DNA of 64,000 nucleotides from Psammoneis japonica (GCA_008632985.1 QPGO01000003.1:682001-746000), one strand, 5' to 3'; counted from the stretch's first letter, positions 2,671 to 24,915 are shown. Numbers and translations are program-made. Notes: generated by a model not told the origin, from the sequence alone.

Positions 2671-3906
2671 ATGACTGATAATGATAATCAGGATGAGTGT
2701 CGTGTGTTGGCGTGTGGATATCGTCATATTCGCAGCCCCAAGACGGGTTTGACCTTTCCAGCGTGGTTGGTTCAATTGTCGGGAGGTCATCAACAACAGT
2801 GGCGGTCCAAACGAGACTTTTTGGTGCTGGGACGCGCCTCCACCAAGATCATTCAATTGCCCAAGGCGGCACTGGAAAAGCTATCTCGACGAGCTCCTTG
2901 GAAACGACCAAGCAACCTCAAACTGCCGACCGATGGCGATGAAAAACCTCTTGCGAATCGTTTTGAAGTTTCCATGAAGAAGAGTTTGCTTCAGCTGGAT
3001 CAGTTTCTACAACAAATACACGACTACACGATAACAAATCCAGACGCAGACTCTGAACTAAAGGGAGCGTGGAAAGTCTTTTGTCGAAAACAAGATACCG
3101 AGTGTCTTTGTCAACACGACGAGACGGCGAACGATGCACAACGATCTGCACAATTGGGGCAATACTTTTGTACACCAGAAAATGCAATACAGGTGAGACG
3201 TTATACTCTATTTTGTGATTGTGGTGATTCGTATCCTCACGCTTGTCTGTGTGAGTATCCTTAGCTGGTCCAATTGGTTTTGAATCGAATCGACCTTTTG
3301 GATGCACATCGAACAGTGTTTTTGGAACCGTCATGTGGCCATGGAGATGTTGTTTTCACCTTGATCAAGGAACTTGAGCGCAACAATGTGCAGCCGGTTG
3401 AAAAGATTTTTATAGTGGCATGTGATATTGACTCTAATGCGATTCAGACTTGCAAGGAGAAAATGGCCACCATCACGTCAACAAGTAGTAGTGTCAATGT
3501 GGAATGGAGGTGCTGCGACTTTTTATCCACCACACCAAGCGACTTTGGCGTTACAGAAAAAGACACGATTGTATGTTTGGGAGGACCGCCGTATACCAGT
3601 GGTGCTGGAAGTGGAACCGACATGAAGCGTGACTTGTGCCAATTATTTCTCTGGCATACACTGCACCAGTGGAGAGCCAGTGTCGTGGCCTTTTTCTTAC
3701 CTCGACGGTATGCAACAAATCGATTGAAAGTACAACAAGACAATCATGATGGAGAAGAGGTGGGCTGGATATGCGAGACACAAGAGCTTTCCTCTAGCAC
3801 GTTTCTCTTTCAAGGGGCAACCAAAGTGATTCAGCCATCGATTCTTCAGTGCTGGTATTGTAACGAGAAAGAGGTAACGACAACCACTAGAGCCGATGAT
3901 GCTTGA
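2671..3906 (+). CDS. SAM-dependent amino (N6-adenine-type) methyltransferase-like protein, join(2671..3192,3265..3906)
   Basis: GT-AG intron 3193-3264 joins the two ORFs in phase 0. Motifs GQYFCTP, LEPSCGHG (motif I), ACDID, DFL and GGPPY (variant of NPPY motif IV) occur in gamma-class order. Confidence 0.7.
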
Positions 3907-4283
3907 CTCTTGCGGACTGTATGATGTAGTCGTCTAGCTTTTATGGCAATAAGCTGTGACTGATTGCCACCAATGTTTCTTACGGGCTGCCTGCACGTTT
4001 CATCTATTTCGAGTGCCTCTCCATCCAACCACTTTGAAAGCGGGCTCAAGGACCTCAATTTTCATGCGGTTTTTAGAGTAGATCTCATATCAAGTACATG
4101 CCATATCATATATACCTATTGAAGATGTTTGCTCTCTTTTGAGAAACGCAAATTCATATCTATGCAGTGACTGCCTACTCGGCAAATGAGAGCTACAAAA
4201 CATTTGAATTGAGGTATTGCCACATGCGAGAAGAAAAAAGACAAGAATTATAGGTATCATATACAATTAGCAAATGGAGAGCT

Positions 4284-5000
4284 TCAAGGCTGCAAGGCTG
4301 CCAATGCTGCAATGCCCTCCGAGATGGCGCGTGCGGCAAGGTCTCCAGAAAACACAATGTCCACAGCTTTCTGGATCTCCTGGCTGGAGAGCAAATCTTC
4401 ATTGTTGTAGGTGGCAATCCTTCCAGCCTGGGTGGCAATAAGGGTAAAGGCGCCCGTCATGATGGCGTCCATCATGGCCAGGCCCATCTTGGAGATACTG
4501 GCTTCGGGATCAACTTGCTCGAGAACCTTTGAAATGTAAGCCGAGTAAGAACTCTGAACCGGTTGTTCCCCTTTTGAAAGCCTGCCTCTGATACCTGGAA
4601 TGCTGGGAAGGTATGGGAGCACTCCTCCACTCGCAATCGTGACTCCTCCAAGAAGCTTCTTGAGCTCTTCACTGTTCATCACGGCGAGAAGAATGTGGCG
4701 AGGCACAATGCGGCTCTCGTTGTCGTCACGGGCGGCATTGCCGGCAAGCTCTAGAATCTCGGCACAAAGGTACTCCAACACGGCAGCAAGGTACACGGGG
4801 GCTCCGGCACCCATATGATCAGCGTATTGACGAAGATAACGCCCAATACGACCGACAGGGAACTGCAACCCGCCCGTCTCCCCGTTCGACTCAGGATCCG
4901 TTGATGGTAGGTGCCGTAACCCGGTGTTGTCTCCGTAAATGGGCTTGACGAGGAGCGCCACGAGGAGAAACAGAGGAAAAGCGAGATGGATGCGTTTCAT
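4284..5000 (-). CDS. Signal-peptide-bearing histone H2A-H2B fusion protein
   Basis: Hydrophobic [23 protein letters not shown] is followed by an H2A fold ([14 protein letters not shown]...[29 protein letters not shown]...IASGGVLP) and then an H2B fold ([15 protein letters not shown]...[10 protein letters not shown]...[11 protein letters not shown]), all in one uninterrupted ORF. Confidence 0.85.
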
Positions 5001-5311
5001 TTTCTTGTTGCTTATGTACTTGGTTGACAATCTGCAATATGATGGTATGGGTATGGGTTCGCAATGATTGCAATGTTATTTTGCATGATGCAATTATTTT
5101 CGAATTTCGAGACAACGCATGTTCTCGAGTTCTTGGCGCGGTGCCGCCAAAAAATCTGAAGGTCCCGCAAAATTTCACAATGCGCGTCATCATAGTTTAA
5201 GAAAACAATACACTTCCCTAAATATCTTTTTATTCAGTCATTTCAATCGAATCAAATATTTTACTATCGTTTTTAAGCGTATTAATTGCCGTTGAAAATT
5301 CTCTCTCTTAT

Positions 5312-5411
5312 GTAGGCTCTGGTACATTTTTAGGTAGATCGCGCCAGCCTCAACCAAATTTTAAAAAATGTTCACGTCTGTCTGTCCGTCTAGGTATCGA
5401 TCGGCGGCAAA
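5312..5411. repeat. About 100 bp direct repeat, copy 2
   Basis: Near-identical to 2438-2534. Confidence 0.9.
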
Positions 5412-8400
5412 CAAAATGCTTTTCCCCAGAACTTTTCTTGAGGGGGGTCATCCCCGCGTTTGTCCTCTCTAGAATTACCGTGGCATTTGAATAAGATCAT
5501 GTGGTGTTTATTTTTGAATGCAAAAACCAGGCCTGCAGGGAGCATTGATCACTTTTCCTTTTGCAGTGCTGAGTGTCGCAGCATTGCTGTGGGCGTGTGA
5601 GCACGCAGGAGTGTGAGTGTGTGCTGTTGTGTGGTGCGTGCATTGGTTGTTCCGGCAGAGGGACAGTCAGATGTCTGTGACACGATGACTGTTTTTGCAG
5701 GTGGCAATGCGAATGGTGGTGTGGATTGCCGTCATGCCAGATGGTTCATGTCGACACGAAAAAGTCTGCAGTCACCAGCCACTGAGTGGTTGATGAAAAG
5801 AAGGCAGGTTCGGCAATGTTCCTGGGTGACGAAGCTGCCTCTGCAGCAATTTGTTCTGCTTGACTGCTTTGTTCTGAACCAGAGGAGTGTTGTCTGTGAC
5901 ATGTTGTTTCTGTTCTGTTTTGTTTCCCTGCTGCATTTTGATTGCTCCGTGAGAGACCAGAGAAGCTCACAACAAAACAGGCCTCGTTTTAGATTTTCCT
6001 TGATCCAGAGCAGGCACCTTTTCAACTTGCCACAGCCTGCCTTGTCAGGAGAAAATCTTTTTGAATGCAAATGATCAAAACCACATGTTGCGTGCCTTTC
6101 TCCCAGATTTTGCCACACACAAGCATGCTCTTTTTTGTCGACCAAATCAAGGCATTTGTTCGCACGCCCTTTGTCCAGCCAGTCCACGACATGGGTGTGT
6201 CAACATGTTCCAGATCTTCTCCACCTGGGCTGGATGGGCCATTTCCTTCTAACTGTTCATCTGGTGGCATCTGGAGCATGTCCTCCACATGACTCAACAT
6301 TGCCGGCATGTTCATCTTTGCAATTTGAATGGCTTGGTTTGCCGATGAGCTCATGTTTGGCTTCTGGTGTTTCATTGGCTGGTGCAGCAACAGCTGAATT
6401 GCAACAAGTTTTGGGATGAGTTGCAAGGAGGGTGCCGAGGGTGTCGACTCCACATTGACTCTGCACTCCCACATGACACCATGTGTTTTGACCATTCAAC
6501 AATTTTTTGGCATGTTCAATGCCTGCCAAACAACACTGAAATTGTCGCTTCATTCCCCATTGCATCAACCCTGATGGAGCAAAATCAAAGCTGTTGGCAT
6601 TCCTGCATTGCTCTGCTTGCTCTTTGCACTTGCAATGATTTTTCTTTCATGTGCCCGTGTTCAACGCCTGGACCAAACAATGGAGCCATTGTTCATTGTC
6701 AATCCCAAGCAGTGTCAATCACATCAGAGCAAGATGAAAGAGCCATTGACTTGAAACCATCAACTCCAAACTCCCATGACACAAAACAGCACAATCCATG
6801 CTCTGCAAGACAAAGTGCAAGATGTGAAAGGCAATGGATGAGCCATCCATGTGTCAAGCAACAGTTGCATGCAATGATGTTGTTGTTTGACATGCAAGCT
6901 TTAACTCACCTGACCAAAGCTTCACACATGCTGACAGTGGAGTTTTCACCTTTGAGCAAAAGCACCCACTGTGCCCTCCAGACAACTGCTGGGTTGTCAT
7001 CCGTCCAAGCAAAGATGGCAAGGAGACACTGACTTTCCCTTTTAGTGGGATGACCCCAAGTGCAATGAAGACATCAAAGATTGTGAGTGAGATGGGCAAC
7101 TGCAAAAAAAGAGAAGATCATGATGCCATGCCATGTTGACGGTCCAAGAGGGCTTGAGGTGTTTGCCATCAAGACCAACTGCAAAGAGCTCAAGACTCTC
7201 CACATGGCAATGAAGGATGCCACCACATTCTTGCAAGGAGGACTCACCCATTCACTGAACGACAAATGGGGAAGAGCAGCTTGCACGGAGCTTGTCAGCA
7301 TCAATCAAAGGTCCTGTGTCATTGTCGCAGGGATGTCAACAGCAGTGTGTGCTTCTGTCATGTGTTTCTTTTCTGCTTTGCATGTCCTCCATTGCTGAAT
7401 GTAACACACAAAGAACAATTGCTTGCTGTGGAGTTGGCAGCCACAAATCTGACCCCCCACGAGATGGACCTGTGATGGTCAGATCAGCAATGTGCATGTT
7501 CTGCTGACCAAAGGTGACCTTGACATAAAACAACAGCATCTTAGAATGCCACCATTTGCATTTCTGAATTTCCTGGTTCATGCAGAATTTTGTTTTTTTT
7601 TTTGGGTGCACCCATGGATTTGGTGTCAATTGCCATTGAAAATTTGTGATGGAAGTTGCCCAGAATGCAAAGTCAAGGCAGCTCTGCAGGGGAGACACCA
7701 AGGAATCTGAGCTGAAAGGGCAGAGATTGGCCACCCACAAGAGAGTAAAATGAAAAAAAAGCTGGACATTCTGATCAATGTTGGAGTGCCTGTCACCTGA
7801 AGGCACAAAGTGAGAGCCTTCAGCAACAATTTTGCGGTGTGGAAACTGCAGAGAACATGCAGAGGCATGCAACAAAAAGCTCAAGACAGAAACTCACAAT
7901 GAAAAGAGTGGAGTTGTTGAAATGTTGTTGCACCCATGTTTTGAGAATCCCGGTGATGATGCCATGATTGGAGAACAATGTCATGATTGAAAAAAGGTGT
8001 CACAACTGGGGTCAGGGGGAAGTGCACCAACTGCATTTGGCAAAGGGCTGGACTCACAAGTTTTGTGTTTGTTGTTGTTCATGCACTGGCTGCACTCAAC
8101 ACTCATCATTTGCAACATTTGTTGTTGAAAAGCAAGTCAGTGCATTGTTTAAAAAAGCCCATTGCATCTCATTGTGAACAAGTTTTCTTGTGGCTGCCTT
8201 TCATGTTGCACCCATGATTGTGTCCAAGTTTGACCTCCATTTGCAGAAACAGACAATTCAAGCAAGACACTCTCATCAAGCAATGCAAATGTGGCAGGTT
8301 GTGTCAAAGGCTTCTGCAACACAGGGAACAGAGATGATGCATCAATTTTGACATTGTGTGGAGATCACTTGTGAGGCAGGAGCAGAAACAACAGAGCAAA

Positions 8401-9599
8401 TCCATGAGATTTGATCAAACAGCAAGAAGTTGCCTCATTGTGCAATGGCTGAAAGAGAAAAAGTGCACCCGACCATGAAAAATGTGTCAGTGCTCAAGTG
8501 GCTGGCAACTGGCAATGCAACAATGTTGTGGCTGCAAATGCAGGATGATTGCACAAAGTGATTTTGTGGTTGTGCAATTGCCACTGCGCAGCACTGTTTC
8601 CATCTGCACAAAAGATGTTGCACTCCAGCTCTTTTCAACAAGATCTGGGTTCCATCTTCATGAATCATGCTGCCACTTCTGACAAAGTGACAAGAGTTTC
8701 AGCATGTTTGCCATTTTTTGTGCAGGCTTCTTGAAGCATGTCATCATTGTGGCAAGGATTGTGTTTTTGATCACATCATGCAGCAGTGGTGTGTCAGCCA
8801 AAGGGCTCGAGATCTTTTGCAGCTGGGCACTCAGCCTCTGCAAATCAAAAACATTCCTGTAATTTAACACATGTTTGTTGTGGAAAGAGACAACATTTGC
8901 ATTCTTTGACATCTCAGTGCAAAATTCATGCAGATTTCTGTGCAACTTTGGGTCAATTTGTTTTTGCACGCCACTTTGTGGTGCAATCATTGGGCCATCC
9001 ACTCGACAACTTTTGCTCTCTGATGTCTGTGAGTGTGACTGTGTGCAAACAGATTTTCCAAGATTTCATGCATGAAGATGTTAAAGACAAATGCCACATT
9101 TGTCATGCACCTGACACATGAGCTGCAGAGCCCACACACAGAATTTTGTGGGACCAATGCCCCAAAAATTCCCACCCAGGCCCAGAGAGCTGGAGCATGT
9201 CCCCTGATGCATTGCATGTCAACTGCAGCCATGATGACATGATTTGTTGTGGAGCAGATTTTTCCTTTAGTTTGGGAGTTTTCTTGTGTTGCTGTCAGCA
9301 ACAGAGGGGGCAGCTTGCCCTGGCATTGTTGCCATTGTTGAAGATGTTGATTGTGAGGATGCAGCTTGGCAGCCATTTTTTTCTGGCAAACAGGCTTCTT
9401 TTTCTTCTTTCCTTCTTTTGTTCTGCTCTGTCTTTGCCATCAGCCTTTTGTTGAGTCCACACAATTTCCTGATCTTTCAGGCAGTTTTCACTGTCATTGT
9501 CTTCACACAGAATGTGGTGTTGTGTGGGCTCTTTTTGTCAGGATTGCCACTGTGCAATGCCATCACACAGGTTTCAAATGGATCTGCCCATGACAGCTC

Positions 9600-11770
9600 C
9601 CATGTCTGCACAGAATGATGCCATCACTGAGACCCATTTGCACCAGGAGGATGATCCAGATCCCTTTTAGTGAGCTGAAAACAGTGAGGCATCTCATTGC
9701 TGTGCCATCTGAAATGCACACAGGTTGAATGTGACAACCAGTCTGCACATTGAGATGACAGTTGAACAGGATGCACACCAAATGCTGGTGAGTGCATTGC
9801 TGGAATTCCCTGCTGCAGTGACCCAAGTGGACTGAGTCTTGTTCACCCCAATCTTGTAGAGCAAAGTGGCAGATGTCTGTGTGGTGAGTGCATCAGCAGG
9901 TTTGCTTGCATTGGCAATCAATGGGGAGGCAGCATTGTCATCATGCACAAGGGTGGCCAGCATTTGTGAAATGTGCAACTCATCAGGAATCAGTTGGAGG
10001 TGCAGTGCCATCTCACCTGCATCTGCAGGAGGCAGGTCAACACAGCCATGTGCTGCAGCCAAAGGAGGAGGGTGGGCCACTTTTGGAAATGTGCCATTGG
10101 CTGCAGTGTGCCAGCTGGTCAGTCCACAATCAGGATGAGCTGCAAGATGCTGGAGAACATGCTGGACTCGTTCACAGCAGTGACAGCCTGGATTGGAGCA
10201 GAGTTGGCTGAGCTTGGCAGTGGCAAAGCCGACACCCATCTTGGTTGTCATGTTGCCATTGCTCAGACAAGTTCTCTGACAGTGCACCAGCAAGAAAAAC
10301 CTTGTTTGCTCTGCAGTTGTTGAAAGCTGGTGGGGACATTTGATGGTGTCGCTGCCTTGTGCTTGGTGCACAAAGCCTCGCCCAGGATGCAGGGAGATCT
10401 GTTGGGAGGGAGATCCATCTGTGTTGGAACCCCAGGAGGACAAAAAAATTGGGGTGGTTGGTGAATGGGCTTGTGGGTTTAGGGGGGAGCACTTCCCAAC
10501 AAAAAGGGGAATCCCCCCAGTGAAAAAAGCAGGGGCCCAGTTTTTGGAGTGCGTCATCACAATGCCTGTTAAACCCAGAGGGATCACACCCTGCAGTGCA
10601 GGTCAAGCCATCATCATGCGATCCATTGCACACATTAAACTGCAGTCTGCTCCAGCTGGGCACCTGGACAGGCCTTTTGTTGCATGCAAGAAGGAGAGAG
10701 AGTGTGATCTTGTCTGAGACCTCTTGTTTGATTCTCATTGAACAAGTTCCTCAGGAGAGAAAGCCTCATCTGCAGCAGGCGCATCATGCTCCATGGCACA
10801 TTTGTTCAATGGCATCTTCTTGCAATGGATGGCATCTGCCATTGCGGTTCGTTTGCGTGCACTGTGTGCTGCACTGTGCACCATGCGCTCGTCGTGGTCC
10901 ATGCTGAGTGGTGCGGCACATGGCACTTGGCACGTCCCAGTGGCTCGTGACCCACCTCGCCAGACAAAATAAACTGGGGAGCCCCAGCTCCCCCCTGAAC
11001 CCACAAGCCCATTGGTGAAGGTGCATTTGATGCAAGACATGCCACAGATCTTGATGAAATCTTGGGTTGGCTCAACATTGCATGCCAAGAAACTAGATGA
11101 GGAGGGGAGACCTTGGTGTTTTGTGCTTCAACGCTTCAAGAGAAGATCAAAGACACTGCACATTTTGTGACAGGTCTCTTTGGGGGCAACCACCATGGCA
11201 AAGCTGTTGACTTGTTCAAGCACTGGAATGGATTCACCATTGATCTCTCCACCACAGATGATGCATGGTTCATGGGCAGTGAGCTTGAGACCAAGGTGAA
11301 ACTGGATGAAGGTCTGTTGACATGGATGTCCCACGCTTGGAGGTTGGAGGTGAGCATGAGATCAAGGAGGCAAGAAGGTGGGGTGCACATGTTGCTGCAG
11401 GAGTGAGGCATCAGCAAAGGGCTGAGGATTAAAAAAGGTCAGTGGAGTCTGTGTGCAGGGGCCTGAGGCAGGGCCTGGCTGGCATTTGGGCAGGGCTTTT
11501 TGGAAATTGGAGAGAGCAAACCAGTGCTTGGGAGAAGAGGGTGTCATGGGTGACAGGGAGTGAAGGATGCTTGTGCCAAGGGCTGAGAATGCAGTTTGCA
11601 GACTTTGTCATTGGGCTCCAGGGCAAGGGATGCAACTGAATGGAGGAAAGCAGCATGAGTGCAGGCAGCGCTGAAGTCATTTTGACCATGTGACGAGGTG
11701 TCAAAACCAGGTGGGCCATTGGAGGGTGTGTGGGGTGAAGCTGCCTGAGAGGCATGTCAGGCCGCATCTG
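9600..11770 (-). mobile_element. Decayed Ty1/copia (CoDi-like) pol: RT and RNase H remnants
   Basis: LKLTAHEPCIICGGEINGESIPVLEQVNSFA resembles the RT motif TTHEPCLY...LRQVDDFA. Also VEPTQDFIKI, GFATAKLSQLCSNP...VQHVLQHLAAHPDCGLTSW, and LVHDDNAASPLIANASKP (RNase H). Confidence 0.75.
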
Positions 11771-12149
11771 AGGAGAATGGATTGAGAGTCATTCTGGAAG
11801 AGGAGGAAGAGGCACTGGGCAACAACAGGAGCTGAGGGTGAGCAGAGTTGCTGGGAGGAGGTCTTGGGTTGAGAGCGCAGGGGTTGAAAAAGAAAAAGGA
11901 GTTTCCAGAGCAGGGCTCAAGAGGTTTGCCAGCAAAACTCACTGAGAGATGGAAGGTGGTGCACTCACACAGTGGCTTCTGGCACTGAAGTGAGGAAGAC
12001 AAATTGAGGGGGGTCATTTGCTGCCATTTTGGCTTGGATTTGGCCGGCAATTTTTCCTGAATTTTGCAGTGCTTTGCCATGGTGAAAACATGATCAAGCC
12101 ACAAGTCTGTGACAGAGAAGGTCTGTCTGCCAACTCTCATCTGTTTTAT

Positions 12150-14060
12150 GTCCGTTGTTCATCAAAGGTCACATGCACACCAAATGTTTGTGGGTGGATC
12201 ATTGTGTTTTGGAGAAATGTCAAGATTGCCATCATCATCATGCTTTGATGACGGTGCCTGATGTTCTTGTTTTTGTGAGTGATCGGGTGTGAATGTGAAC
12301 AATTTTTGTGTTCAAAAACAAACACTGCTCTTGCTCCAAAATGCCACACTGCTGGACCAATGTGAATTGCTTTGTCCCTTTTCTGGGTTTCCCAACATCC
12401 AGCAGCGCATGAGACTCCTTGAGCGGTGCAAGTCATTCTTCAGAATCACTGCGTGTCAACTTTTCAAATTGACAGTTCTCTTTGTTGAGCATGTCAGAGT
12501 CATGCTCCTTGTCCCTGTGCTTTGGATCATTGTTTGAGGAACTTGACTTGAACATTTTTTGAACTGCTCCATTGATCAGCATGGCATTTGGTTCTTCCCT
12601 GCAACTGGCATTTTATTGTCACAACATGGCCACAAGCAATTGCCATTCAAACAACGCCTTTTTGGATCACATTTGTGTTTTTCATTGCACTCTTTTGCCA
12701 GTCTTTTAATGACCCAGCAATTGTGTGTGTTGTGAGCATCCTTTTTGCAGCGGTCACACCACTTGTCAGACTCAGAACATTTGGCACCAGAATGGTGACC
12801 ATTTTTTGAACCATGATTGGGTCCATCCTTGGCTTTTGATCTAGACTTGCTGCTGGCATCAGCCTTGACATAAACAGAGTCAAAGATGACTTCAGCAACC
12901 TCCAAACACTCTAGAATCTTTGTGCCAACTTGTCACAGGCATGCTTCAAAATTTCAAAACCTTGAAGCATTGACTGGTGCTGCCATTTGCATGGTGCGAG
13001 ATTGTAGAGGTGATGTCCTTGAGCTTGTCATCCTCCATCTTCTGGTCTTCTTCAAAAGGAGGACAGTGCTTGAGGTCTTTGTTGACTTTTTGAACCCTGG
13101 CGGCAATTTCGCGGATCTTCATGGTCTCTGGTTTCTTGAGATCGTGACGCAGACAATGCTTCTGAATTTGGAGAGCATTTTTTGGGAAGGCATGCTTGGT
13201 GAGGTGCTGCAGTCATTTTTTGAAGGCTCCTTTGCTCTCTTCATCTTCAACATTTGTGGCGCCATTCTTGAATGCATGCAATGCATCTCCTTGCAACAAC
13301 ACATGCATCAAATGGAACTCATCTGATTGTTTCTTGATGTTCTGGCCCACCAAGAGTTGACCACAGCTCTTCAAAAATTCAAGGTGCTTGGGAACACCTT
13401 GCTTCTTGCAGTGCTTGACATTGATGGTGTGGGTGCAGCCATCCTTCATTTCTGGATGACAGCACTGCTCCATCTTGAGGTGCTGGATTGGTTTGAGCAT
13501 CTTTGGCTCAGAGATCGACTCCAACAATTGAGGAACAATTTTCTCCTGCTTGAAGGAAGACTTGGCCTTGGCAACATGAGGCAAATGCTTCATTTTCATC
13601 TTGTCAACTTCTGTGGTGTGCACACACAATGCACTGTGCTTGAAGAATGAGCACAAATGAAAGCAGAACAAAGCACAAAGAGTGAAAATTGTGAGATTAG
13701 ATCTTGCTCAATCATTTTGGGTTTCTCCAAACAAGTTCTCAATGGCCTGAAGCTTCTGCACAGCTTCTGCAGACAAGAGGCTTTTCAGAGAATGCAATCA
13801 TGACAACAGATTGTCCGGATGCAATGACTGTTGACACACAAGATGTCAACACCATCAAGCAATCACATTTGCAAATTTCGACATCCAATCAATTCTGTGT
13901 GATTGATCTGTCCTTCACATGAACCCATGACAGATGCACGATTGAAAGTGTGGTGACATTCAAAACCATGGACACACACGCAAATGCACGTGGCAATGCA
14001 TGTTGCATTTGTCCCACTTTTGTTCAGCATCAAGAACTTTGCATGTTGACAGAAAGACAT
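12150..14060 (-). mobile_element. Decayed Ty3/gypsy copy B (leader, gag, start of protease)
   Basis: Colinear with about 16200-18130 at DNA and protein level, e.g. AKSSFKQEKIVP and LLVGQNIKKQSD in both, plus a CxxC..H..C knuckle. Confidence 0.8.
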
Positions 14061-14099
14061 TGTCGCAGGATTTTGGTGGGAGCTTTTCAGCCAGCTCTT

Positions 14100-17000
14100 C
14101 TGTGCTGAGATTTTCCACAGGCACTGTTTTTCTCATGGCAAGTCAGCTGATTGCATCTGCAACAATGTCAGCCTTGCCCTCAAGGCAAATCATTTTGAGG
14201 TTCTTCGTTGTCAGATGCCAATGCACAACTCTGTCCATTGTGAAATTTTTGTGCACAAGATTTTTATGATCCGCACATGTGTTTGTCTGTTGGCCAAACA
14301 GCACATTCTGGAATTCTTTCAGTGTTTCTACAATGGACAGTGGCTCTTTCTTTTGTTGCAGCACATTGTGTCTGTGCTTCATTCAGCTTGCGGCTGCAGA
14401 AAGCAATGGGTCGGTTGTTCTGCGTGACCACCGCTCCCAATTGAGAATCACTCCTTGTGTCAGCATGTGTCTCAAAGGGCATGTCAAAATTTGGATGTGA
14501 CAACAACATGTCTTTGGAGATGATGTGCTTCACATTTTCAAAGGCTTTTTTGTTCTGTTTCTGTCCATTGCCACTTTACCTTAGATGAGGTGAGTTTGGC
14601 TGAAGGAGAAAAAAACATGAAATCATTGAGGCCACATGTCTTGACATCAGCTGATCATCCCAGTGAAGCATCACAATTCCTTGCAAGATTTGGGAGTTGC
14701 AACAGCGTGAATTGCTTCTGCTTTTTTGGCATCAGACTGATGCCATTGCAAGTGATGTGAAAGCCTGGATGGTCTGCTTTGGGTTTGGCAAAGAAGGACT
14801 TCTTGGCATTGACCTTCAACCCGGCTTGTTCAAGGTGTGTGAACACCGTTTCAAGCTTCTTGAGATGGTCTTGAAAATCACCTTTTGCAAAACACAGCAT
14901 GTCATCAATGCAAGTCCTGACAAACTGCAGACTTGCCATGAGCTCACTCATGTGCTCTCTTGGAAAACATCCAGAGCTCCGCAGATTGCCGCGGGCAATC
15001 TGCAGCACTCATGTTTGTCTCAAGGCATGACAATCTTGCACAAACAATGTGCGTGTGGAGTCAATTTGACATGACAGTGTCCTGCATTCAAATTGAGTGA
15101 AGCAGCACACATGAAGCCCTTGAGCTTCTGCAGCACATCTTGAGCGTTGGGCAGAGGAAATGGAGCATGCATCAACCACTCATTCAGCTCACGGAAGTTG
15201 GACAGAAGTTGAACTCAACTGTTTTTCTTTGGTTGAATGAAGGTTGGAGCAGCCCATTTGGAGCTGTTTTTTAAACCTTCAACTTGCACAGTCTTTCAAC
15301 CTCCTTTCAAGCAGTTGCCTCTGAGGCTTGTGGTGTGGGAAATGGCTTGGTGTGATGTGGGCTTGTGCCTGATTTCAACTTCAAATCCACTGGTTTCCCA
15401 GTCCATTTGCCCAGAGAACCATCAAAAAGGTTTCCAAATCTTTTTAAGAGGAAGTTCAGTTGCTTCTGCTCTTCTGGAGTTAGATGAGTTGCTGCTGCAG
15501 TTACATTGTCAAGGTTGGCAGCATGACAATCTGAGTCAAGGATCCAATTGACCCTGTCATTGAGACCAATCACAGCATGAGATTCCTCAACATGATTGGC
15601 AATCAACTTAACCCTTCAACCACCGGACTGCTCCCTTACATCACAAACACAGCAAAACAAGCAATTTCAGATGTGGGCGACATTTTGTTCACGCGATTTT
15701 GTTTTGGAACGTGCACTCGCCAAAAATCTGGGGGAACCCTTTTTGTAATTTAGAAAGTTCAATGTCGACTTTTAACACCGGGTTTTTTGCAAGCTTCATC
15801 TGTGAACAGAGAGGAACTAAATCTCAACCTGTGACAATGCAGGTTGTCATGAACTGCTGTCACAAACAGAGCAACAATGCCACACCCTTGGAGCAAATCT
15901 CCGCCGGTGGAGATTTGCTCCCAACAAGTGAGTGCACTTGGCATGCTTTACGTAGATTCTACGAGACATGACATTTTCGCTCCCCTGGTGGTTGAAGGGT
16001 TGAGAAACTGGCATTGAAGAGTGCACCAACATTCTTCATTGGTGCAGCCACATCCTCCCATTTGATTTCTTTGTTTGAGAAGTCCAATGTGATCCCAAGA
16101 TTGGGCATTGAGTTGTGTCCCATGATCACATCATAACAACTTGAAGAAGAAAGGGTGTTGTCAGCATGTTCTGTTGTTTTGATCATCTCATGTTTGTCAA
16201 ATTCAGGCGAGGCAAACTGGATTTTACACTGACTGTCAGTTGTGAAGAGCCCTCCTTTGGTTTCCCAAATTTTGGTGGTGGATTCCTTGGCTCTGAGTTT
16301 CTGCGTGAATTTGTGCAAAATTGTGGTTTGCAATCTTCCGCTGTTGAGGAGAACATGCAGAGGCTTTTTTGCTTTGCCCAAAGAGGCACTCATGTGAGCA
16401 ATGACTGCTGGACTGGCATGAGTTGCTTTGGCCTTTTTTCTTGGCTTTTTAACATCCAGCAGTGCACAAGACTCCTCAAGCAGAGTGAGTTGTTCTTCAG
16501 AATTGCTGTGCATGAGCTGCTCAAATTGACAGTTTTCCTCACTGAGGGTGTCAGAGTCACACTCCTTGCTCTTGCGCTTTGAATTGTTGTTCAAGGAACT
16601 TGCTTTGAACATTTTTTGAACTGCCTTTTTGATCATGGCATTCAGCTCTTCTTTGCGAGTGGCATTTTCATTGTTGCAACATGACCACGTGCCATTGCCA
16701 TTTGAGTGATGCCTTTTTGGATCACACTCACAATTCCCATTGCATTCTTTGGCCATTTGTTTAATGACCCAACACTTGTGTGCATCATGAGTGTCCTTTT
16801 TGCAGCAGCCACACTGCTCATCAGACTCAGATTGCTTGGCACCAGATTGGTGACCATTTTTGGAACCATGGTTGGATCCATCTTTGGCTTTTGATCCAGA
16901 CTTGCTGCTGGCACCAGCCTTGACATGAGTGGAGTCAAAGAGGTCTTCAGCAACCTCCAGATGTTCTAGAAACTCCACCAACTTGTCACAAGTGTGTTTC

Positions 17001-18130
17001 AAAATCTTGAAACCTTGAAGTGTCAACTGGCACTGCCATTTGCATGGTGCAAGATTGCAGAGGATGTCCTCAAGCTTGTTGTCCTTGATCTTCTGATCTT
17101 GCTTCTTTGAAGGGAGAGCAGCACTTGAGGTCAGCACTTGAGCTCTTCATTGACTTCTTGAACCCAAGCAGCAATTTCTTGGATCTTCATGGTCTCTGGT
17201 TTCTTGAGATTGCAGCGCAAATGATGTTTCTGAATTTGGAGAGCATTCTTCAGGAAGACATGCTTGGCAAGACACTGAAGGCATTTTTCAAAGGCTTCTT
17301 CACTCTCTTTGTCTTTAACATTTGTGGTGCCATTCTCAAATGCACACAGAGCATCTCCTTGCAACAACATGTGCATCAAATGGAGCATGTCTGATTGCTT
17401 CTTGATGTTCTGGCCCACCAAGAGTTGTTCAGAGTTCTTCAAAAATTCGAGGAACTTGGGAATGCCTTGCTTCTTGCAGCACTCAACATTGATTGTGTGG
17501 GTGCAGCTGTCCTTCTTTTCTGGATGAAACCGCTGCTGCATTTTGAGGTGCTGGCTTGGTTTGAGTGTCTTTGGCTTGAAGATTGATTCCAGTGGCACAG
17601 GAACAATTTTTTCCTGCTTGAAGGAAGACTTGGCATTGGCAACAGGAGGCAAAAGCTTCATTTTCATCTTGTTGCCTTCTGCAGTGTGTGTGCACAATGC
17701 ACTGTGCTTGAAGAACAAGTGTGAATGAAAGCAGAACAAAGTGCGAAAGTGAAAATCATGACAGCAGATTTTGCTCAATCATTTTGGGTTTCTCTGAACA
17801 AGTTCCAATGACCCAAAGCTTTTGCACTGCTTCCACAGACAAGAGGTCTCTGTCTGGTGGATGTGATTGCTGTTGACACATGAGATGTCAACATCGTCAA
17901 AAACATGCATTTGCAAATTTTGACATCCAACCAATTCTGTGTGATTGATCTGTCCTTCATGCAAACCCATGATTGACATGTGATTGAAAAAGCAACAATG
18001 TTGAAACACAAACACACACACGCACATGCAAATGCACACAACAATGCACGTTGCACTCCAGCAATGGTGTTTGTGTGCAGAATTCTGTGTGCAAGCTCTG
18101 CACTTTGCAGGTTTAGTCAATGGACACATT
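14100..18130 (-). mobile_element. Decayed Ty3/gypsy copy A (gag, protease, RT, RNase H; no integrase seen)
   Basis: Protease LLNSG...WETKGGLFTT...YDVIMG...LGITLDFS. RT FVRTCIDDMLC...LEQAGLKVNAKKSFF (YIDD->CIDD). RNase H HPNFDMPFETHAD...QLGAVVTQNNRPIAFCSRKLN...LSIVETLKEF...DHKNL...VADAIS. Confidence 0.9.
15612..15999. mobile_element. 388 bp piggyBac-type MITE inserted in gypsy pol
   Basis: 15 bp TIRs CCCTTCAACCACCGG / CTGGTGGTTGAAGGG (1 mismatch), flanked by TTAA (15608-15611) and TTGA (16000-16003). Confidence 0.8.
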
Positions 18131-19692
18131 TGTCTTCAACCTCTGATTAAACAACCAATTTTGCAGTGCCTTTGTGCCTCTCAATGCTTGAAGTTTTCAA
18201 AAATGCACCTGCCCTGCACAATTCCCAAGACATCAGAAAATTGTGCAGAAGAAAAAATGTGAAAATTTGTTGAATGGATCACCCAACAATGATGGCACTA
18301 CAAAACAATGCAAAATTTCTCCAAAGTCACATGGAAATGCACGTGCGCGAGACATGCGTTGCAATCCAAAAAACTGTTGATGTCACAGTTCAGCACTGCA
18401 AGGTTCCATCCACAGCTGGGGTGCATTTTCAATTTCTGTCACTGTGAAAAGCAATGGGCAAACCAGCCATTTTGTTGCTGGAGTTGTCACTCATGATTTG
18501 CAAGGGCCAAGCTCCAAACAAGTGATGAGATCTGCAGAGGCACTGCAACAGGAGAGAGTCGTGGCCCACTGTCCAGCTGGTGCAGCAAATTTGAAGAGCA
18601 AAGAAAGTGAGCAAGTTTTGTTCAAGTTCAACAGCAGAGCAGCATTTGTTGTTGGCAATGGGATGAATGAGCATTTTGATGAGACTCAAGCACCTGAAGA
18701 AGGGTGTTTGATTGGGCAGCCATGGACATTGCCATGCTTGGCTGCAAAGGATTTTAGGAGCTGTGCAGGAAACAAGCACGTCGGGGCACTTGGGTGTCAT
18801 TGAATTTTTTGGGACCACTCTGCATGCAACTCATGCATGTGCAATGATGAGACATGCAGAGCTTGAGCCCCTGCATGACAATGGTGTCACATTTGGCACT
18901 GCCCAGAGATCTCAGACAGCCTCTTCATGCAAGATGCGCCAAGTGTGCTCCTTGTTCCTGCTTGATCAGCTGTCTCAATGAGTCAGCTGATGGATGCAGG
19001 ACAGTGGCCTTGCTGCACCATCCAGGGTTGCCTGCTGTGCTTGCTCCTGTGATGAGATCAGTTGAGTGACGGAAGTGATCCAGTGCAAAGCAATGTGGCT
19101 GTGGCACATCTGACTGGAATTTGTCCTGAGTCTCCAACTTTTTATTTCAGATTCTGATGAGCACTGTCATCACATGTGTCTTTGTGTTGAACATGCAAAA
19201 AGCCAGAGTTTGTCATCTGAGACTTGTCATCTGGGCAACTCAAGCTCTGCTTTCATCCCTGTCAGACCTCTCTGCTCAATGCATCAAGCAACAGACAAGG
19301 CCATCAAAAAATTCTTCTCTCACAGCATGTTGTTTCTTGACCTCTGTGGAAAGAATGTGCATCAGCTGATTGTGGGCATGGCAGATTTTTTTGCAATCAG
19401 AACACCCAGCCATGTGTTGAAGTTTCTTTCTCTCCTGGGTGCACTCATCACTTTGTTCTTGTTGTTGGCCATGAGTGCTTGCCCACGGACATGTCAGCAT
19501 CACCGCACATGTTGTTCAAAGGCATTTTGGCACATTTGAGTCCCTTTTGTTGTTGACTTGCATCAATCAATCATGACAATGTTCAGTGCAGTTAATGGCA
19601 TGATTGAATGTGATCCACACACACAAAACAAGATGAAATTTGATGGCTTGTGTGCAGAAAACTGGCACAACAGTGGCCTGAACAAATGTGGA

Positions 19693-20149
19693 GGATCTGG
19701 TGCTTATGTTTGTTTTTCCCTTTCTCAGATCTCACACGAAGAACACAGTGGTGAGTCATTTTCATGCAAATGACTGTTCTTGTGTTGCATCTTCACAAGT
19801 GCAAACCACAAAACATCTGGTGGAGCAAGCAAAGGCCAAGGCAAAGCAGAGTCATGTGTGGCTGGTGTCAACATGGTGGGTTCAATGCCACAGTTCATTC
19901 TTCTCTTTCTCTGCCACAAGGGATCTGGTGTTCATGTTTGTTTTTCCTTTTCTCAGATCTCATATGAAGAACACAGTGTGGTGAGTCATTTTCATGCAAA
20001 CGACTGTTCCAGTCGTGTTGCACATTCACAAATGCAAGCCACAAAACATCTGGTGGAGCAAAGGCCAAGGCAAAGTAGAATCATGTGTGACTGGTGTCAA
20101 CATGGCAGGTTCAATGCCACAGTTCATTCTTCTCTTTCTCTGCCACAAG
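19693..20149. repeat. Tandem duplication of a ~228 bp unit
   Basis: 19693-19920 and 19921-20149 both start GGATCTGGTG and end CTCTGCCACAAG. Confidence 0.9.
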
Positions 20150-22440
20150 GGGCTGCTTTGAGGCAATGCGCCAATGCTGCGCCAGCCGTGGTCTTCGCCA
20201 CATGGTGGATTTGCACGTGGCTGGTTTTTTCTGAGTGTTTCACGAGCTTTCCTCAAGTGGTGAAATGAAAACATTTGCACGAGGACATGCACAAAGTGTG
20301 TGTTTTGTCACTTCATTGGAATGATGGGTGATTGTTGGAAGCCAAAAACTGCGAGCTGTGGCGGGTGACATGGCAAAACTGTCTGGTGCCAAAAGCTGCA
20401 CAAAAAATCATGCTTGACAGGTTTCATTTCACCTGGAGCTGGAGCTGGAGCTGGAACTGGCCTTTGGCGCACTTTAACATCATGAAGCATGCTTGCTGCA
20501 CAACACCCAAAATGCAATGAACGGCTGTTGCAAAGTGCGCAGCAGCTCCAAAGCACTGCCATGGGGCCCAACGCCATGCTTCCTCGTGCAATGTCAAACC
20601 TCCCAATTTTCACCAAAATGCATTTCCAGCCGACCAATGGCATAATAACACGAGGTTCCCGACAACTTTTGGGGTCGCAAGTAGAGAGTTGCGTTAGTCA
20701 CAGAGCTGTCACTAAAATTTGTCCCTCTTGCTTTCTCCCGTGCAACAGAGGTGCTCTGCGAAAAGCTGCTTCCATTTTCAAAAGCCGATGCCAGGAACAA
20801 CATGCACCCATTGCATTCTCATAAGATGCTGGTTTGAAGCGTAGGATGCCGACAATGTTCGTATCTTGGGCACTTCTGTCTCTAGCGGGGGGTCAAAGTC
20901 TAACCATTTTTAGTTTTTTGATTCTAGTCGAATGGATCCACGTTCATTCTCGAGTGGTGACTCGTTCAATCGAATGAGTCGTCAAAGTACATTCTCGACT
21001 CGTGATTCGAAGTCACGAGTAAAACTTGCACGAGCGTTCGTGCCATTTTGACAGCGTTGCACGAACAACAGGGTCGTTGCGGCATCCTCTAGGTGTTTGG
21101 CAAGGGTGACGATGCACACCGCTGTGCTACATTTACCATGTGATAGCTTGAAAACCTAAGATAATGGTGTGCTCATCACAGCTCGACAGGCCACACTTTG
21201 TGAAAACAACAGTCATTTTTCATTCCGAGACGCACTCACACATGGCACCCAACTTCGAATCTCGGCCTTCCCACAAGATAAAAAGCTGCATTCACGAAAG
21301 CATGAGACCAGCAATTAGGGAGAAGCAAAACACACTGTTGGGATTGTGTGTGGTTCGTGCCAAGCAAACACAGCGCGGTGTTGTTGTGCATTGCTGCAGG
21401 CTTCAAAGCAGTGCCGGTCAATTTCCGACCCAGCCACATCAAACAAACCCTGCACCGCCTCTTTTTTTTTGACTTTTCATTCTCAAGTCCAGCTGCAGCA
21501 GCCATGTTTGGTTTTGCAGCTGCTCCTTCAGCAGACAGCCAATCCTTTGTCAGAGCTCTCATGCCCGTCTTTGTGAGCTTCCCACTGCTGCTGCCTGGCT
21601 GAAGCTCTTGTGTCCCCGGGAAGACTTCTTGGCACACACCAAGATTTCCTCACAATGCAAACCATCTGCCCACGCCTTCCAACCAGCATCACATCTGAAA
21701 GCAATTTGTTTGTTCTTGAATCTGAATCCATGAATGTGAGAGCATGTCTTTTTCTGAATTTCCGTTTCAATGAAACCCTCTTCAATCCGACAACGCTTTG
21801 GCGGACGCACCACAATTGCTCCATTGGAAGTTGTGAAGGTTTCCTTGAAACCAAATGCTTGCTCTGTGCTCAAGAATCCTGGCATGGCATCTGTGGCTTG
21901 TGCAATGATGTGCCAGAGCTGGTCTCTGGCAGACTCATTCTCACAATCGCCGCCACACCAATCTCTTTGGCCAATGCTTTCTCATGCCACCACCATTTTG
22001 CACTTGTGTTTTCTAGCCTTTTTGTTGCTGCCAGCTTTGACTCAGTGGGTGCCAGAAATCTGGCTGGTGGCAGGCATGTGAAGAATTGTCACGTGACATG
22101 CTGTCACGACAAGTGAAGCAGCATGTTTCAACATTTCTCGCCAAAATGCACGTCTCCTGATGGATGATTGCAAGAGCACATTGATGAAGATCTAATGGAG
22201 CTTCTGTTGCAACGGTCCAGAAAATGATGACAGTTCAGATGCCTGTTGAAGCGATGCAATTGTTGCCATTGTCAGTGAGAGATTTGGTCAATTTCCCGTG
22301 GTGAGACCACGGTGATGGTCTGCACGCTCATCCGGAGTGCGCCTGCCACACCAGTTTGGAGTTGTTCAAGTTGGGACTCACAACTGCAAGATTTTGGTGA
22401 AAGAGTCATCAAGCATGAGAAACACACATTGTGTCAGCAA

Positions 22441-22975
22441 GCAAGTTGAGTCACATTCAAGCATGCTAAATTGACATGAGCTCAACAAAACACACCACAA
22501 GTTCTTGCACCTGAACCATCATTCAGCACTTTGATGAGTGCAAAATCAACACCACACTAGACACCTGCACACAAAGCAAGCAAGAAGCTCATCATTGAGT
22601 TGAGGAAAGTCCGGTCATTGCTGTTGGCTTTCTTGCTGCACTGGTGTCCATGGCTTGCTGTGCCACAAAACAGAATGCATTTCAAAATCAAGATGACAAC
22701 ACCTGTGAATGTAAGAGATGAAAGAGCTCAGTGGGGTGCATTGAGAGAAAAGAGACACAGAGACACAGGTTGGCACTCGTGACAGACACAGAGCATGAGC
22801 GCTAACATGCACATGTGTGTGAATTGCAGCAGATTGCAACAATGCACTCCAATGCCTCATCTTCCAAAAACCAACAACTCATCTTCCAACATCACACAAA
22901 GAACAGTGCAAACAAAGCATCCAGCATTTGAAAAGCATTGGCACCATTTCAAAAACTCATTTCAAAAACTCCTTT
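22441..22975. repeat. Diverged ~550 bp direct repeat, copy 1 (copy 2 at about 23968-24555)
   Basis: Shared blocks GCAAGTTGAGT, GCAAAATCAA.ACCACAC, TTCTTGCTGCACTGGTG, GCATTGAGAGAAAAG.GACACAGAGA, CATCTTCCAAAA and CCATTTCAAAAACT occur in the same order. Confidence 0.75.
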
Positions 22976-23967
22976 TGTTGCCATTGTCATCATGAGACTC
23001 TTGGTTCTTCACATCCTGGCCATTCTGAGTCTCTTGCTCTTTGCCTCAAGACTCGTGCAAAGCCTGCACAAAGTCCTGGCAGGGTGAGAAGAGACATTTT
23101 TGCCCAAGAGGTGAGTGACACCTCCCAGGCAAGGGAGGAGGAAGCATGGATGGGAGTTGTGGTGCATGAAGCCTCCTGGGTTTCTTTGGCCATGCAGAGA
23201 AAGACCCAAGTGATTGACAGGCCATTTTCAAAAAACATTTTTTGTTGTTTGCCACACACCCAGGTTTTCGTCAAATGTCTGCCACATGGAGTTGCAAAAC
23301 AGCTGGCAATGAGAGGCCAAACCACGGGTCTCTTCCTCAACATTTGTCTCCCAGGAACTTGGTGAGTTGTGAATGTCAGCAGGCTGCCAAGAGACTGAAT
23401 GTGGCAAGAAAAGTGAAGGCATTTTAGTGAACTTTGGCATCATGCAAAATGCACACTTGCAGTCAGAACAACGCCCAAAAGAAAGCAGTTTTGAGTTCTG
23501 TCATTGCAACCCAGATTCTGCAAGTTGCAGTTCTAAAATCCCATCACAGCAAGGTTTTCTTGAGTGGCTGCCAAGAGGCTTAACAAGACAAGACAAGCAG
23601 AATGACCAAAACACATGTTTTGGCTCACACTTCAATGTCACAACACTTGTTTTTGGCTGCAAAACAATGTCCCAAAGAAAGCCAGTTGGCGCAGTTGTCA
23701 TTTGCTTCCCAGATGCTGTGTGCTGCAATCATGGAATTTTGTCCATGAGTGGGGCCATCTTGAGTGACTGACAAGAGGCCAAGCATGGCAAGAAAAATGG
23801 GTTGAGCAAAACAGCATGCATTTTGGCACAATTTGGATGTCATGATGCACGCTTGCTGAACAGTGCACAAGAAAACTCAATGAACAGTTGCTGTGAAACT
23901 GCGCAGCTGCTGCAATGCAGTGCAAGACTTCAACAGAAGTGGCAAGCACAAGGAACACATGATGGTG

Positions 23968-24555
23968 AGCAAGTTGAGTGGCATGAGAGCACACACAAAG
24001 TTGGCGTGAGTTTCACAAAGCAAGCCACAAGCTCTTGCATTGAGCTGCAATTCAGTGGTTTGACACACGCAAAATCAAAACCACACAGGACACACAGCAT
24101 TTACAAAGTGAGCCACTTGTCACATTGAGATGAGCAAACCCATTGTTGCTGTGATTTTTCTTGCTGCACTGGTGGTGCGCTTGAAGCTTGCCGTGCCACA
24201 AGAAGGGCACAGAGCTCAGCACAAAAATGAATCTCAAGACAGCAATGCCCCATGCGAGTGCAAGAAGACATGAAAAGCTCAGCAGGAAGCATTGAGAGAA
24301 AAGTGACACAGAGAGGCAAAGATGTGGACAAACAACAGATGGAAAGCACACACACACTGACAAGTGCATGCGTGGGTTGCAGGGGGCTGCAACAGCGGTG
24401 CACTCAGACTCTTCTCACGCACCTCATCTTCCAAAACCAAAATGCTTTGTCTTCCCACACTCAGCTTGCCTCAATCAAGAATGTCACAAACAGCACAAAG
24501 AACAAAAAGCACAGTTTTTGAAAAGCAGTGACGCCATTTCAAAAACTGAAAACTC
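23968..24555. repeat. Diverged ~590 bp direct repeat, copy 2
   Basis: Colinear with 22441-22975. Confidence 0.75.
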
Positions 24556-24915
24556 TCGCTTTTTTGTCACGAAGTGCAGAGACACCCCCTGGTCATTTTG
24601 AGTGTTCACGTAGAACCCACACAAAATCCTCTCTCTAGCTAGAGTAGAGAGATTTATGCCCCGATGTGATTGAATGACGATTGGTCGCGTATTTAGTCGT
24701 GTCTGTATCTTTAACTGCAGTTTAATTCTACGTACACAAACGCTACAGCAACAGCAAGGTTCAAGGTGGAGTGAAAAGGCAAGAGAACATTGAATGACCA
24801 ATCCCCAAAATCACTGGGGCACTGCGCAAGCATTGAATTGACCAATCTCAAAATCAAAAATAGTAATGCCTTGTGTCCACGATCGCCTCATCAATGTTTG
24901 TGAATTGTGATCACG

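Follow-up and report, generated by a model that had tools for sequence, protein, structure and literature searches.

Results

Composition of the window

The window examined here is a stretch of 64,000 nucleotides from Psammoneis japonica (GCA_008632985.1 QPGO01000003.1:682001-746000), in which four gene islands of normal composition lie among five domains that have lost nearly all of their TA dinucleotides and most of their CG dinucleotides (Table 1). The loss of TA and its dependence on the neighbouring bases are the subject of this study. In Pfam scans, island 1..5450 carries genes for a histidine kinase, a methyltransferase-like protein and histone H2A, and the islands also encode a flavin amine oxidase, RNase H2 subunit C, a class C receptor and a protein kinase. 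The window is eukaryotic, and short GT...AG introns of the ordinary kind are found in two island genes.

Counts were pooled over the five domains, which amount to 47,293 bp with domain 3 counted as 31900-33000 and domain 5 as 58800-64000, and the four islands (14,753 bp) served as control. The observed/expected (obs/exp) ratios in the domains are 0.06 for TA, 0.22 for CG, 1.78 for TG and 1.86 for CA, against 0.56, 0.93, 1.21 and 1.22 in the islands. The G+C content is equal, 0.473 in the domains and 0.469 in the islands. The TA ratio of 0.06 spans 74% of the window; measured per kb in domain 1, the ratios are 0.01-0.24 for TA, 0.02-0.60 for CG and 1.6-2.0 for TG+CA. Among the NA steps (N, any base), only TA is depleted in the domains (obs/exp 1.86 for CA, 0.98 for GA, and 1.21 for AA against 1.15 outside).

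Table 1. Coordinates of domains, islands, repeats and genes in the window
Feature	Coordinates	Strand	Remarks
Control gene islands	1..5450, 24700-28000, 33050-36900, 56600-58750		Normal composition
Domain 1, TA/CG-depleted	5510..24610		Flanking TA at 5509 and 24611
Domain 2, TA/CG-depleted	28100..30550		TA: YTAR 8, YTAY 3, RTAR 2, RTAY 1
Domain 3, TA-depleted	31626..33071		Lone TA at 32851; left 125 bp CpG-dense
Domain 4, TA/CG-depleted	36950..56400		TA: YTAR 37, YTAY 18, RTAR 17, RTAY 4
Domain 5, TA-depleted	58600..64000		Continues past the window end; first 500 bp CpG-dense
Unmutated reference copy	27296..27624	+	Normal composition, in a gene island; segment also in domain 4
Mutated copy of 27296-27624	38469..38810	-	Inside domain 4
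Direct repeat, left copy, 1.65 kb	12348..14007	+	Self-BLAST, 77% identity over 1687 columns
Direct repeat, right copy, 1.65 kb	16404..18055	+	Self-BLAST alignment to the left copy
Retroelement pol remnant, frameshifted (reverse transcriptase, RNase H)	14146..15008	-	Between the repeat copies; Pfam
Pterin-binding enzyme gene relic	46009..46359	+	Domain 4; Pfam Pterin_bind, E 1.3e-5, 25.4 bits, cutoff 25.5
Amino-methyltransferase-like gene, adenine-specific type	2668-3906	+	72-nt intron 3193-3264; motif I EPSCGHG

Loss of TA depends on the flanking bases

The domains retain 202 TA in 47.3 kb and the islands contain 581 in 14.75 kb. Sorted by flanking purine (R) or pyrimidine (Y), the domain TA comprise 110 YTAR, 41 YTAY, 43 RTAR and 8 RTAY, and the island TA 93, 146, 156 and 186. 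The corresponding densities of the domains relative to the islands are 0.369, 0.088, 0.086 and 0.013, and YTAR differs from RTAY with a Fisher odds ratio of 27.5 (p = 8e-31). YTAR is lost slowly but does not escape, its depletion being about 2.7-fold.

A first-pass annotation of this stretch had held that TAY is the target and that YTAR survives, and had named uniform depletion of all NTAN tetramers as the pattern that would speak against this. The tally of the 16 tetramers inside and outside the domains has now been made, and uniform loss is rejected (chi-square 335, 15 degrees of freedom, p = 2e-62). The counts in domains and islands, respectively, are 38/18 for TTAG, 35/25 for TTAA, 19/23 for CTAG, 18/27 for CTAA, 19/37 for TTAC, 16/38 for GTAA, 12/37 for GTAG, 10/31 for CTAC, 11/41 for TTAT, 13/55 for ATAA, 4/45 for GTAC, 2/26 for ATAG, 2/48 for GTAT, 1/37 for CTAT, 1/44 for ATAC and 1/49 for ATAT. 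Relative density is highest for TTAG (0.66) and TTAA (0.44) and lowest for ATAC (0.007) and ATAT (0.006). The order of the neighbours is unchanged under a flat expectation that ignores the flanks.

The context pattern recurs in each of the four domains with more than one TA. In domain 5 (58800-64000), 13 YTAR, 3 YTAY, 2 RTAR and no RTAY were counted. In 5520-24608, to which the annotation referred, 53 of the 94 TA are YTAR, 22 RTAR, 16 YTAY and 3 RTAY, as the annotation had it in calling the survivors mostly YTAR. The tetramers it described as very rare, GTAC, ATAT, GTAT and ATAC, occur there 1, 1, 1 and 0 times; TTTAG and TTTAA, described as frequent, occur 10 and 11 times; and its examples of TCTAGA were found at 12840, 12910 (given as about 12911) and 16965.

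Random regeneration of TA from TG and CA does not account for the pattern. That null expects 45 YTAR, 51 RTAY and 106 TA of mixed class, and 110, 8 and 84 were counted (chi-square 134, p = 8e-30). The survivors are also rich in T two and three bases upstream, the frequency of T at position -2 being 0.49 against 0.27 for all YR steps; the p-value of this enrichment is inflated because the count was symmetrised.

A model of independent attack on the two strands

The counts were described with a model in which the strands are hit independently, at a rate set on each strand by the base 3' of the A. This additive two-strand model fits the 16 NTAN counts (chi-square 20.7, 12 degrees of freedom, p = 0.055). 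For RTAY, two independent strands lead to an expected relative density of 0.088 x 0.086 / 0.369 = 0.021, and 0.013 was observed. The apparent rates, with block-bootstrap 95% confidence intervals, are 2.44 (2.05-2.96) for TAT, 1.80 (1.58-2.08) for TAC, 0.69 (0.51-0.87) for TAG and 0.29 (0.20-0.43) for TAA. In likelihood-ratio tests, chi-square was 215 for the purine/pyrimidine split over a uniform rate and 20.4 (p = 4e-5) for four separate bases over that split.

The 3' preference is therefore graded, T > C > G > A, without a clean switch between pyrimidine and purine, and the purine/pyrimidine split explains most of it. The proposal that TAY is the target and YTAR the survivor is supported, as TAY is lost faster on either strand. 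The rule has to be softened to a gradient, and YTAR is itself depleted. Among the survivors of all domains, TTAG is found 38 times and its reverse complement CTAA 18 times, a strand asymmetry that lies outside the two-strand model.

Island DNA was mutated in a simulation with two rules, one for TA and one for CG, and its k-mers were compared with those of the domains. The correlation was 0.993, 0.986 and 0.976 for k = 2, 3 and 4, against 0.82, 0.80 and 0.75 for unmutated island DNA, and simulated and domain trinucleotides deviated by no more than 27%. As the two rules reproduce the domain spectra, no extra mutational context is needed.

Direction of change

The products of the change were examined by flank class. 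YTAY and RTAR together lost 18.7 per kb, whereas YTGY and RCAR gained 28.2 and YCAY and RTGR 9.1 per kb. The loss of CG with the same flanks, 21.7 per kb, corresponds to about 10.8 per product class if evenly split. When this share is subtracted, roughly 17 of the 18.7 per kb of lost TA are found in the predicted class, YTGY and RCAR; the asymmetry of the product classes has a Fisher odds ratio of 1.36 (p = 1.4e-6). Over all classes, 74 steps per kb were lost and 75 gained. The loss of YTAY and RTAR went almost wholly to YTGY and RCAR, that is, from TAY to TGY.

A polarised comparison is provided by the island segment that has a mutated copy in domain 4. None of the 11 TA of the island copy is intact in the domain copy, where 7 read TG and 4 CA, and the 12 CG have likewise all changed (5 to TG, 6 to CA and 1 to TT). 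YTAY became TG in 4/4 cases, RTAR became CA in 1/1, and CTAA became CCAA in 2/2, which places the change on the TAG side, not the TAA side, on the other strand. All seven direction-informative sites changed as predicted (p = 0.008). A stretch of about 18 C in the domain copy, within 38250-38900, has no counterpart in the island copy.

Change in place, in repeats and in single-copy DNA

The direct repeats of domain 1 are possibly long terminal repeats (LTRs); on inspection, their termini and a target-site duplication did not resolve. The pol remnant between them matches RVT_1 (E 2.8e-6, 14658-15008), RT_RNaseH_2 (E 4.3e-13, 14267-14575) and RT_RNaseH (E 5.7e-6, 14146-14382) in Pfam. At the YR steps of the repeat alignment, TG faces TG 128 times, CA faces CA 112 times, TG faces CA 80 times, TA faces TA twice and CG faces CG once. 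Outside the YR steps, the copies diverge by 16%. The 80 discordances between TG and CA mean that ancestral TA or CG was resolved separately in each copy, and therefore after the duplication and in resident DNA.

Both products occur in similar numbers throughout. Kb by kb, TG and CA are in balance almost throughout the domains, the pol relic included (89 TG and 75 CA in 14267-15008), and for RTGY against RCAY |z| stays below 2 in 12 of the 14 segments of 4 kb. This balance shows that both strands were hit, and it rules out edited RNA as the vehicle.

Repetition is not required. A single contig from a sequencing run matches 5437-10552 with 2 differences in 5116 bases, at a depth like that of other unique pieces, and no other contigs at least 80% alike over most of the length were found for this segment. 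In the bins of 7657-10312, the depth is little above that of the single matching contig. Related contigs stack in large number on 12.0-18.9 kb but not at all on 7.7-10.3 kb, summed depth not being equivalent to copy number. TA stands at 3.2 per kb in the single-copy part, 5520-10552, and at 5.0 per kb in the repeat-rich part. In domain 4, the segment matching Pterin_bind is probably what is left of a cellular gene copy that no longer functions. Since the single-copy stretch and the pterin relic are both depleted, the process tracks the domain and not repetition or transposon identity.

Only 3 of the 212 open reading frames (ORFs) of at least 90 amino acids in the domains have a Pfam match (two pieces of retroelement pol and one Pterin_bind), and 1 of the 135 ORFs of 55-89 amino acids in 5520-24608 (RNase H). 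Viral hallmark genes were absent from the Pfam scans of domain ORFs. Open frames of up to 395 amino acids, such as 15959-17146 (-) and 9694-10602 (-), have no family match; they are not to be taken as genes, because the near absence of TAA and TAG makes them expected by chance. The domains are gene-free silent DNA, made of a retroelement relic of which many related copies exist elsewhere, pseudogene fragments and unrecognisable single-copy sequence.

Domain borders and separate loss of CG

The borders of TA loss are sharp to about 100 bp. The last TA before domain 1 is followed by the next only at 5990, and TA reappears immediately past the right end of the domain (Table 1). No border coincides with any recognised repeat or element. 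At three TA-free edges (5577-5830, 31627-31751 and 58601-59106), CpG is at full density over 125-500 bp. The loss of CG is also nearly context-free (chi-square 27.9, p = 0.02, against 335 for TA). The two losses are separable, because their borders differ and TA is more completely removed.

The TA-free, CpG-dense edges, 5510-5830, 31626-31751 and 58600-59106, adjoin the upstream side of minus-strand genes (H2A, RNase H2C and kinase, respectively). These edges may be promoter regions that escape the loss of CpG though not that of TA. One of them contains, at 31719-31743, a short (CGNN)n run with CG every 4 bases, seven times. Among CG contexts, TCG is the most over-depleted, with a survival of 0.15-0.20 against 0.20-0.35 for other 5' bases; it stands at 0.73 of the uniform-loss simulation, a mild 5'-T bias.

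Some patches are less depleted. Those at 15250-16250 and 20300-21500 have 15-19 TA per kb, and those at 20300-21500 and 43000-45400 retain CG at 27-42 per kb. In 43000-45400, TA is down to 5 per kb while CG, at 27 per kb, is half lost. In 20300-21500, RTAR (9) outnumbers YTAY (2) and the TG/CA skew is opposite, the numbers being too small for interpretation. Such patches may be younger insertions or less exposed DNA.

Other features of the islands

The product of the methyltransferase-like gene has GGPPY as motif IV in place of (D/N)PPY. Its match to the NCBIfam family of Alw26I/Eco31I/Esp3I adenine DNA methyltransferases is weak (E 2e-7, 30 bits, far below the cutoff). EPSCG and GGPPY are kept in 43/43 aligned sequences, which comprise the window protein and 42 relatives, three named diatom proteins included. 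The predicted model of one relative, P0004 (predicted local distance difference test score, pLDDT, 77.6), resembles METTL5 and the DNA adenine methyltransferase M.BseCI at the level of the general fold only. That this gene, with its invariant GPPY, might help to recognise adenine in the TA process is pure speculation, to which next to no weight is given.

A ciliate-type genetic code, raised by in-frame stops in two genes, was rejected, as both stops lie inside short GT...AG introns. No match to tRNA or Rfam families was obtained within the window. For the island ORF 27245-27811, comparison with Pfam, NCBIfam, PDB and protein sequences brought up no relatives. None of the window proteins has an identical entry in a collection of 5.8 billion proteins, the best match of the amine oxidase being 69% identical, and no related loci were found in metagenomes scanned with the amine oxidase and with this relative.

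Discussion

Context dependence, direction, strand symmetry, an in-place origin after duplication and sharp limits are established here for the loss of TA. A context-specific mutator acting on TpA at the DNA level is very probable on these grounds, and for adenine deamination as its chemistry the chances are put at even. Taken as a whole, the best explanation is a domain-targeted TpA mutator, likely an adenine deaminase, accompanied by a separate decay of CpG; its probability is estimated at roughly 0.55.

In such a mechanism, a domain-confined and nearly complete process would convert TpA to TpG or CpA by A:T to G:C transitions, attacking the DNA in place and its two strands independently. On each strand, the rate would follow the base that comes 3' of the A, in the order T > C > G > A and with a span of roughly 8-fold between TAT and TAA, and the base two away would have an effect as well. 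RTAY would vanish first because it is exposed on both strands, YTAY and RTAR, open to attack on a single strand, would turn into YTGY and RCAR, and YTAR would linger. The agent would be an enzyme that targets silent or foreign chromatin; the likeliest is a polynucleotide adenine deaminase, which converts A to inosine, read as G. A second process, most simply deamination of 5-methylcytosine, would remove CpG almost regardless of context.

A precedent is available from the alga Bigelowiella natans. According to the main text of the bioRxiv preprint by Mettrop et al. (10.64898/2026.01.13.699255), 231 of 302 nuclear mutations in mutation-accumulation lines fell within two silent viral inserts, and 230 of these 231 de novo changes were A to G or T to C on TpA, the rate being about 6e-7 per site and generation. 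The larger of the two inserts is single-copy, and an ADAT2-like adenine deaminase is proposed there (10.64898/2026.01.13.699255). As far as that text describes them, the two species agree in the restriction to TpA, in the products TpG and CpA, in transitions only, in silent regions with normal flanks, in the involvement of single-copy DNA, and in TpA-poor clusters rich in CpA and TpG as the long-term trace. They differ in that P. japonica has reached an end state (TA obs/exp 0.06), whereas TpA is 1.8-fold lower in the B. natans nucleocytoplasmic large DNA virus insert, and in that the P. japonica domains are without recognisable viral genes, have lost CpG as well, and allow the 3' preference and the two-strand kinetics to be read. 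The words "flanking", "context", "trinucleotide" and "CpG" do not occur in the main text of that report. With this precedent and the fit of the motif, the enzymatic reading of the first-pass annotation is strengthened; the enzymatic cause itself we infer.

Several points weigh against this explanation. Every result comes from a single 64-kb window. A to G at TAY is formally the same as T to C at RTA, so the sequence by itself cannot tell which base is attacked. No deaminase (the CDA-fold type with its HxE...PCxxC core included) or other candidate enzyme was found among the ORFs of the window in Pfam, no genome-wide search having been made. The natural site of TadA is UAC and ADAR prefers a 3' G, so neither predicts TAT as the best site. 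The apparent rates are exposures at or near equilibrium, with TA re-formed from TG and CA, unlike measured rates. The ancestral composition of the domains was approximated by that of the neighbouring gene islands, where avoidance of stop codons may lower TAR and thereby inflate YTAR survival up to about 2-fold, the order being the same with a flat prior. The contigs that confirm 5437-10552 come from one sample, which may be the source sample of the assembly, and are not independent. The polarised sample is small, 11 TA in one pair of about 330 bp. The annotation had reported that 8 of 10 TA changes between paralogues fit TAY to TGY; the recount in the polarised pair gives 9/11, which is not significant alone (chance 0.58, binomial p = 0.09), and in the within-domain pair 12348-14007 / 16404-18055 only 1/6 of the TA differences fit. 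The sites of the latter pair are, by the way they are defined, slow ones that survive in one copy.

Among the rival explanations, attack on the thymine is a serious one, although it is considered unlikely. R-T-A would be oxidised by a TET/JBP-like enzyme to 5-hydroxymethyl- or 5-formyluracil, which mispairs with G and turns T into C, and the same enzyme might act on 5-methylcytosine. 5-Formyluracil is mutagenic, hydroxylation of TpA thymine occurs in other protists, and RTA to RCA fits the data exactly as TAY to TGY does. As TA and CG are lost in the same domains, and TpA and methylated CpG are both 5-methylpyrimidine-purine palindromes, one agent could suffice. However, CpG persists at full density 125-500 bp inside the TA-free edges, and the losses are unlike in context dependence (chi-square 335 against 28) and in completeness (0.06 against 0.22). 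Differing in borders, context and completeness, they make two agents more likely than one. Lesions handled by base excision should moreover leave some transversions, and only transitions, with full mass balance, are seen. By the k-mer comparison and the product counts, transversion products are equally missing for a repair by-product, in which deamination of 5-methylcytosine would be followed by patch repair with an error-prone polymerase misreading TA. Polymerase eta has a bias for WA motifs (W, A or T), and the loss of TA does co-localise with that of CpG. AA, however, is undepleted (1.21 in the domains against 1.15 outside). TA is also gone at the CpG-intact edges and where CG is half lost (43000-45400, with 5 TA and 27 CG per kb), and its removal exceeds that of CG, the supposed driver. 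This origin is judged improbable.

If no mutator were at work, the pattern would have to come from selection against TA and CG, from context-specific regeneration of YTAR, or from an assembly or base-calling artefact at modified bases. The domains are old, with 16% divergence outside YR steps, so that YTAR may in part be input from TG and CA, and the confirming run may be the source sample. Random regeneration nevertheless predicts 45 YTAR, 51 RTAY and 106 mixed TA where 110, 8 and 84 are found, and site-by-site selection across 47 kb of relic DNA is implausible. The run contigs agree with the domain (2 differences in 5116 bases), and the same signature arose de novo in Illumina-sequenced lines of another species. 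Explanations of this kind are very improbable. Least credence of all is given to A-to-I editing of transposon transcripts by an ADAR- or ADAT-like enzyme, fixed by reverse transcription and insertion. It would suit the pol relic inside domain 1 and the predominance of transitions over transversions against related copies (1134 places and 349). The strands are, however, equally changed even in that relic (89 TG, 75 CA), and the 80 TG-against-CA discordances between adjacent copies denote separate change after duplication. Single-copy DNA, the pseudogene relic and the copy of the island segment are affected too, and the sharp borders match no recognised repeat or element. ADAR-type editing fixed by retrotransposition was rejected on the balance of TG and CA and on the neighbour order T > C > G > A. 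Drift and GC-biased gene conversion, which the first-pass annotation had already set aside, are likewise rejected: the change is confined to domains with sharp borders, G+C is unchanged, CG is lost to TG and CA, a strong-to-weak change, and TA is the sole A/T-containing step affected.

The domain-targeted TpA mutator has partial counterparts among known systems. Repeat-induced point mutation (RIP) of Neurospora and its relatives, in the portion of the literature drawn on here (PMC2621366), changes CpA to TpA, thereby enriches the DNA in AT, and depends on duplication of the sequence. The domains resemble its products in the defence-like degradation of transposons by transitions only, tied to a dinucleotide, on both strands and in bounded segments, but they lose TA, gain CA, keep their G+C and include single-copy DNA. 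RIP itself was rejected, since TA is lost and CA gained, G+C is 0.473 against 0.469, the single-copy stretch 5437-10552 is depleted and the island copy 27296-27624 is untouched. The decay of CpG in methylated transposons is matched by the change of CG to TG and CA in the same domains with weak context dependence; it accounts for the CG half only, and the CG borders lie inside the TA-free ones. As in hyperediting by ADAR and hypermutation of retroelements by APOBEC3, clustered transitions of deaminase type are found in sequence that is foreign or repetitive. The preferred site of ADAR has a 3' G and may have a 5' A, the substrate of ADAR and APOBEC3 is a single strand of an intermediate, RNA or cDNA, and APOBEC changes C. 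In P. japonica, the resident DNA is altered on both strands, a 5' T is strictly required and a 3' pyrimidine is preferred.

To our knowledge, no natural enzyme has been found to deaminate adenine in chromosomal DNA, and the adenine base editors used in the laboratory had to be obtained by evolving TadA. The natural site of TadA is UACG in tRNA-Arg, with a 3' C. TadA, ADAT2-ADAT3 and the TadA base editors share with the proposed process the conversion of A to inosine and then G, and a T or U directly 5' of the target. The comparison with TadA made in the first-pass annotation holds for the 5' T; on the 3' side, TAC is fast (1.80), TAT is faster (2.44) and TAG and TAA are still hit. A resemblance is all that is left. 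The natural substrate of these enzymes is the tRNA anticodon loop, and amphioxus ADAT2/3, in the part of the work used here, is reported to deaminate both A and C of DNA, the sites being TCG and GAA, not TA (PMC10354150).

The phenomenon of TpA hypermutation is thus already known, very recently; the quantitative neighbour detail is new here, and no description of joint loss of TA and CG or of a neighbour preference at TA was found in the literature searched. It was not until 2026 that a natural mutator of this kind, one that strips silenced DNA of TA, was reported, for a single alga and from about 230 new mutations, as given in the main text of that report (10.64898/2026.01.13.699255). The P. 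japonica window adds the neighbour preference, independent hits on the strands, sharp targeting borders and a separable CpG partner process. The measured preferences are specifications for a candidate enzyme, and candidates are therefore directly testable on TAT, TAC, TAG and TAA oligonucleotides. Low TA, high TG+CA and enrichment of YTAR among the survivors provide a marker for genome scans of other eukaryotes. Tentatively, and at somewhat less than even odds, P. japonica would be a second eukaryote with a chromatin-targeted DNA adenine deaminase, one with a strict 5' T and a 3' preference T > C > G > A, acting on both strands and saturated over tens of kb. Together with the decay of methylated CpG, by which silenced DNA would lose both of its self-complementary pyrimidine-purine steps, it would form a two-armed, RIP-like defence that leaves the G+C content constant.

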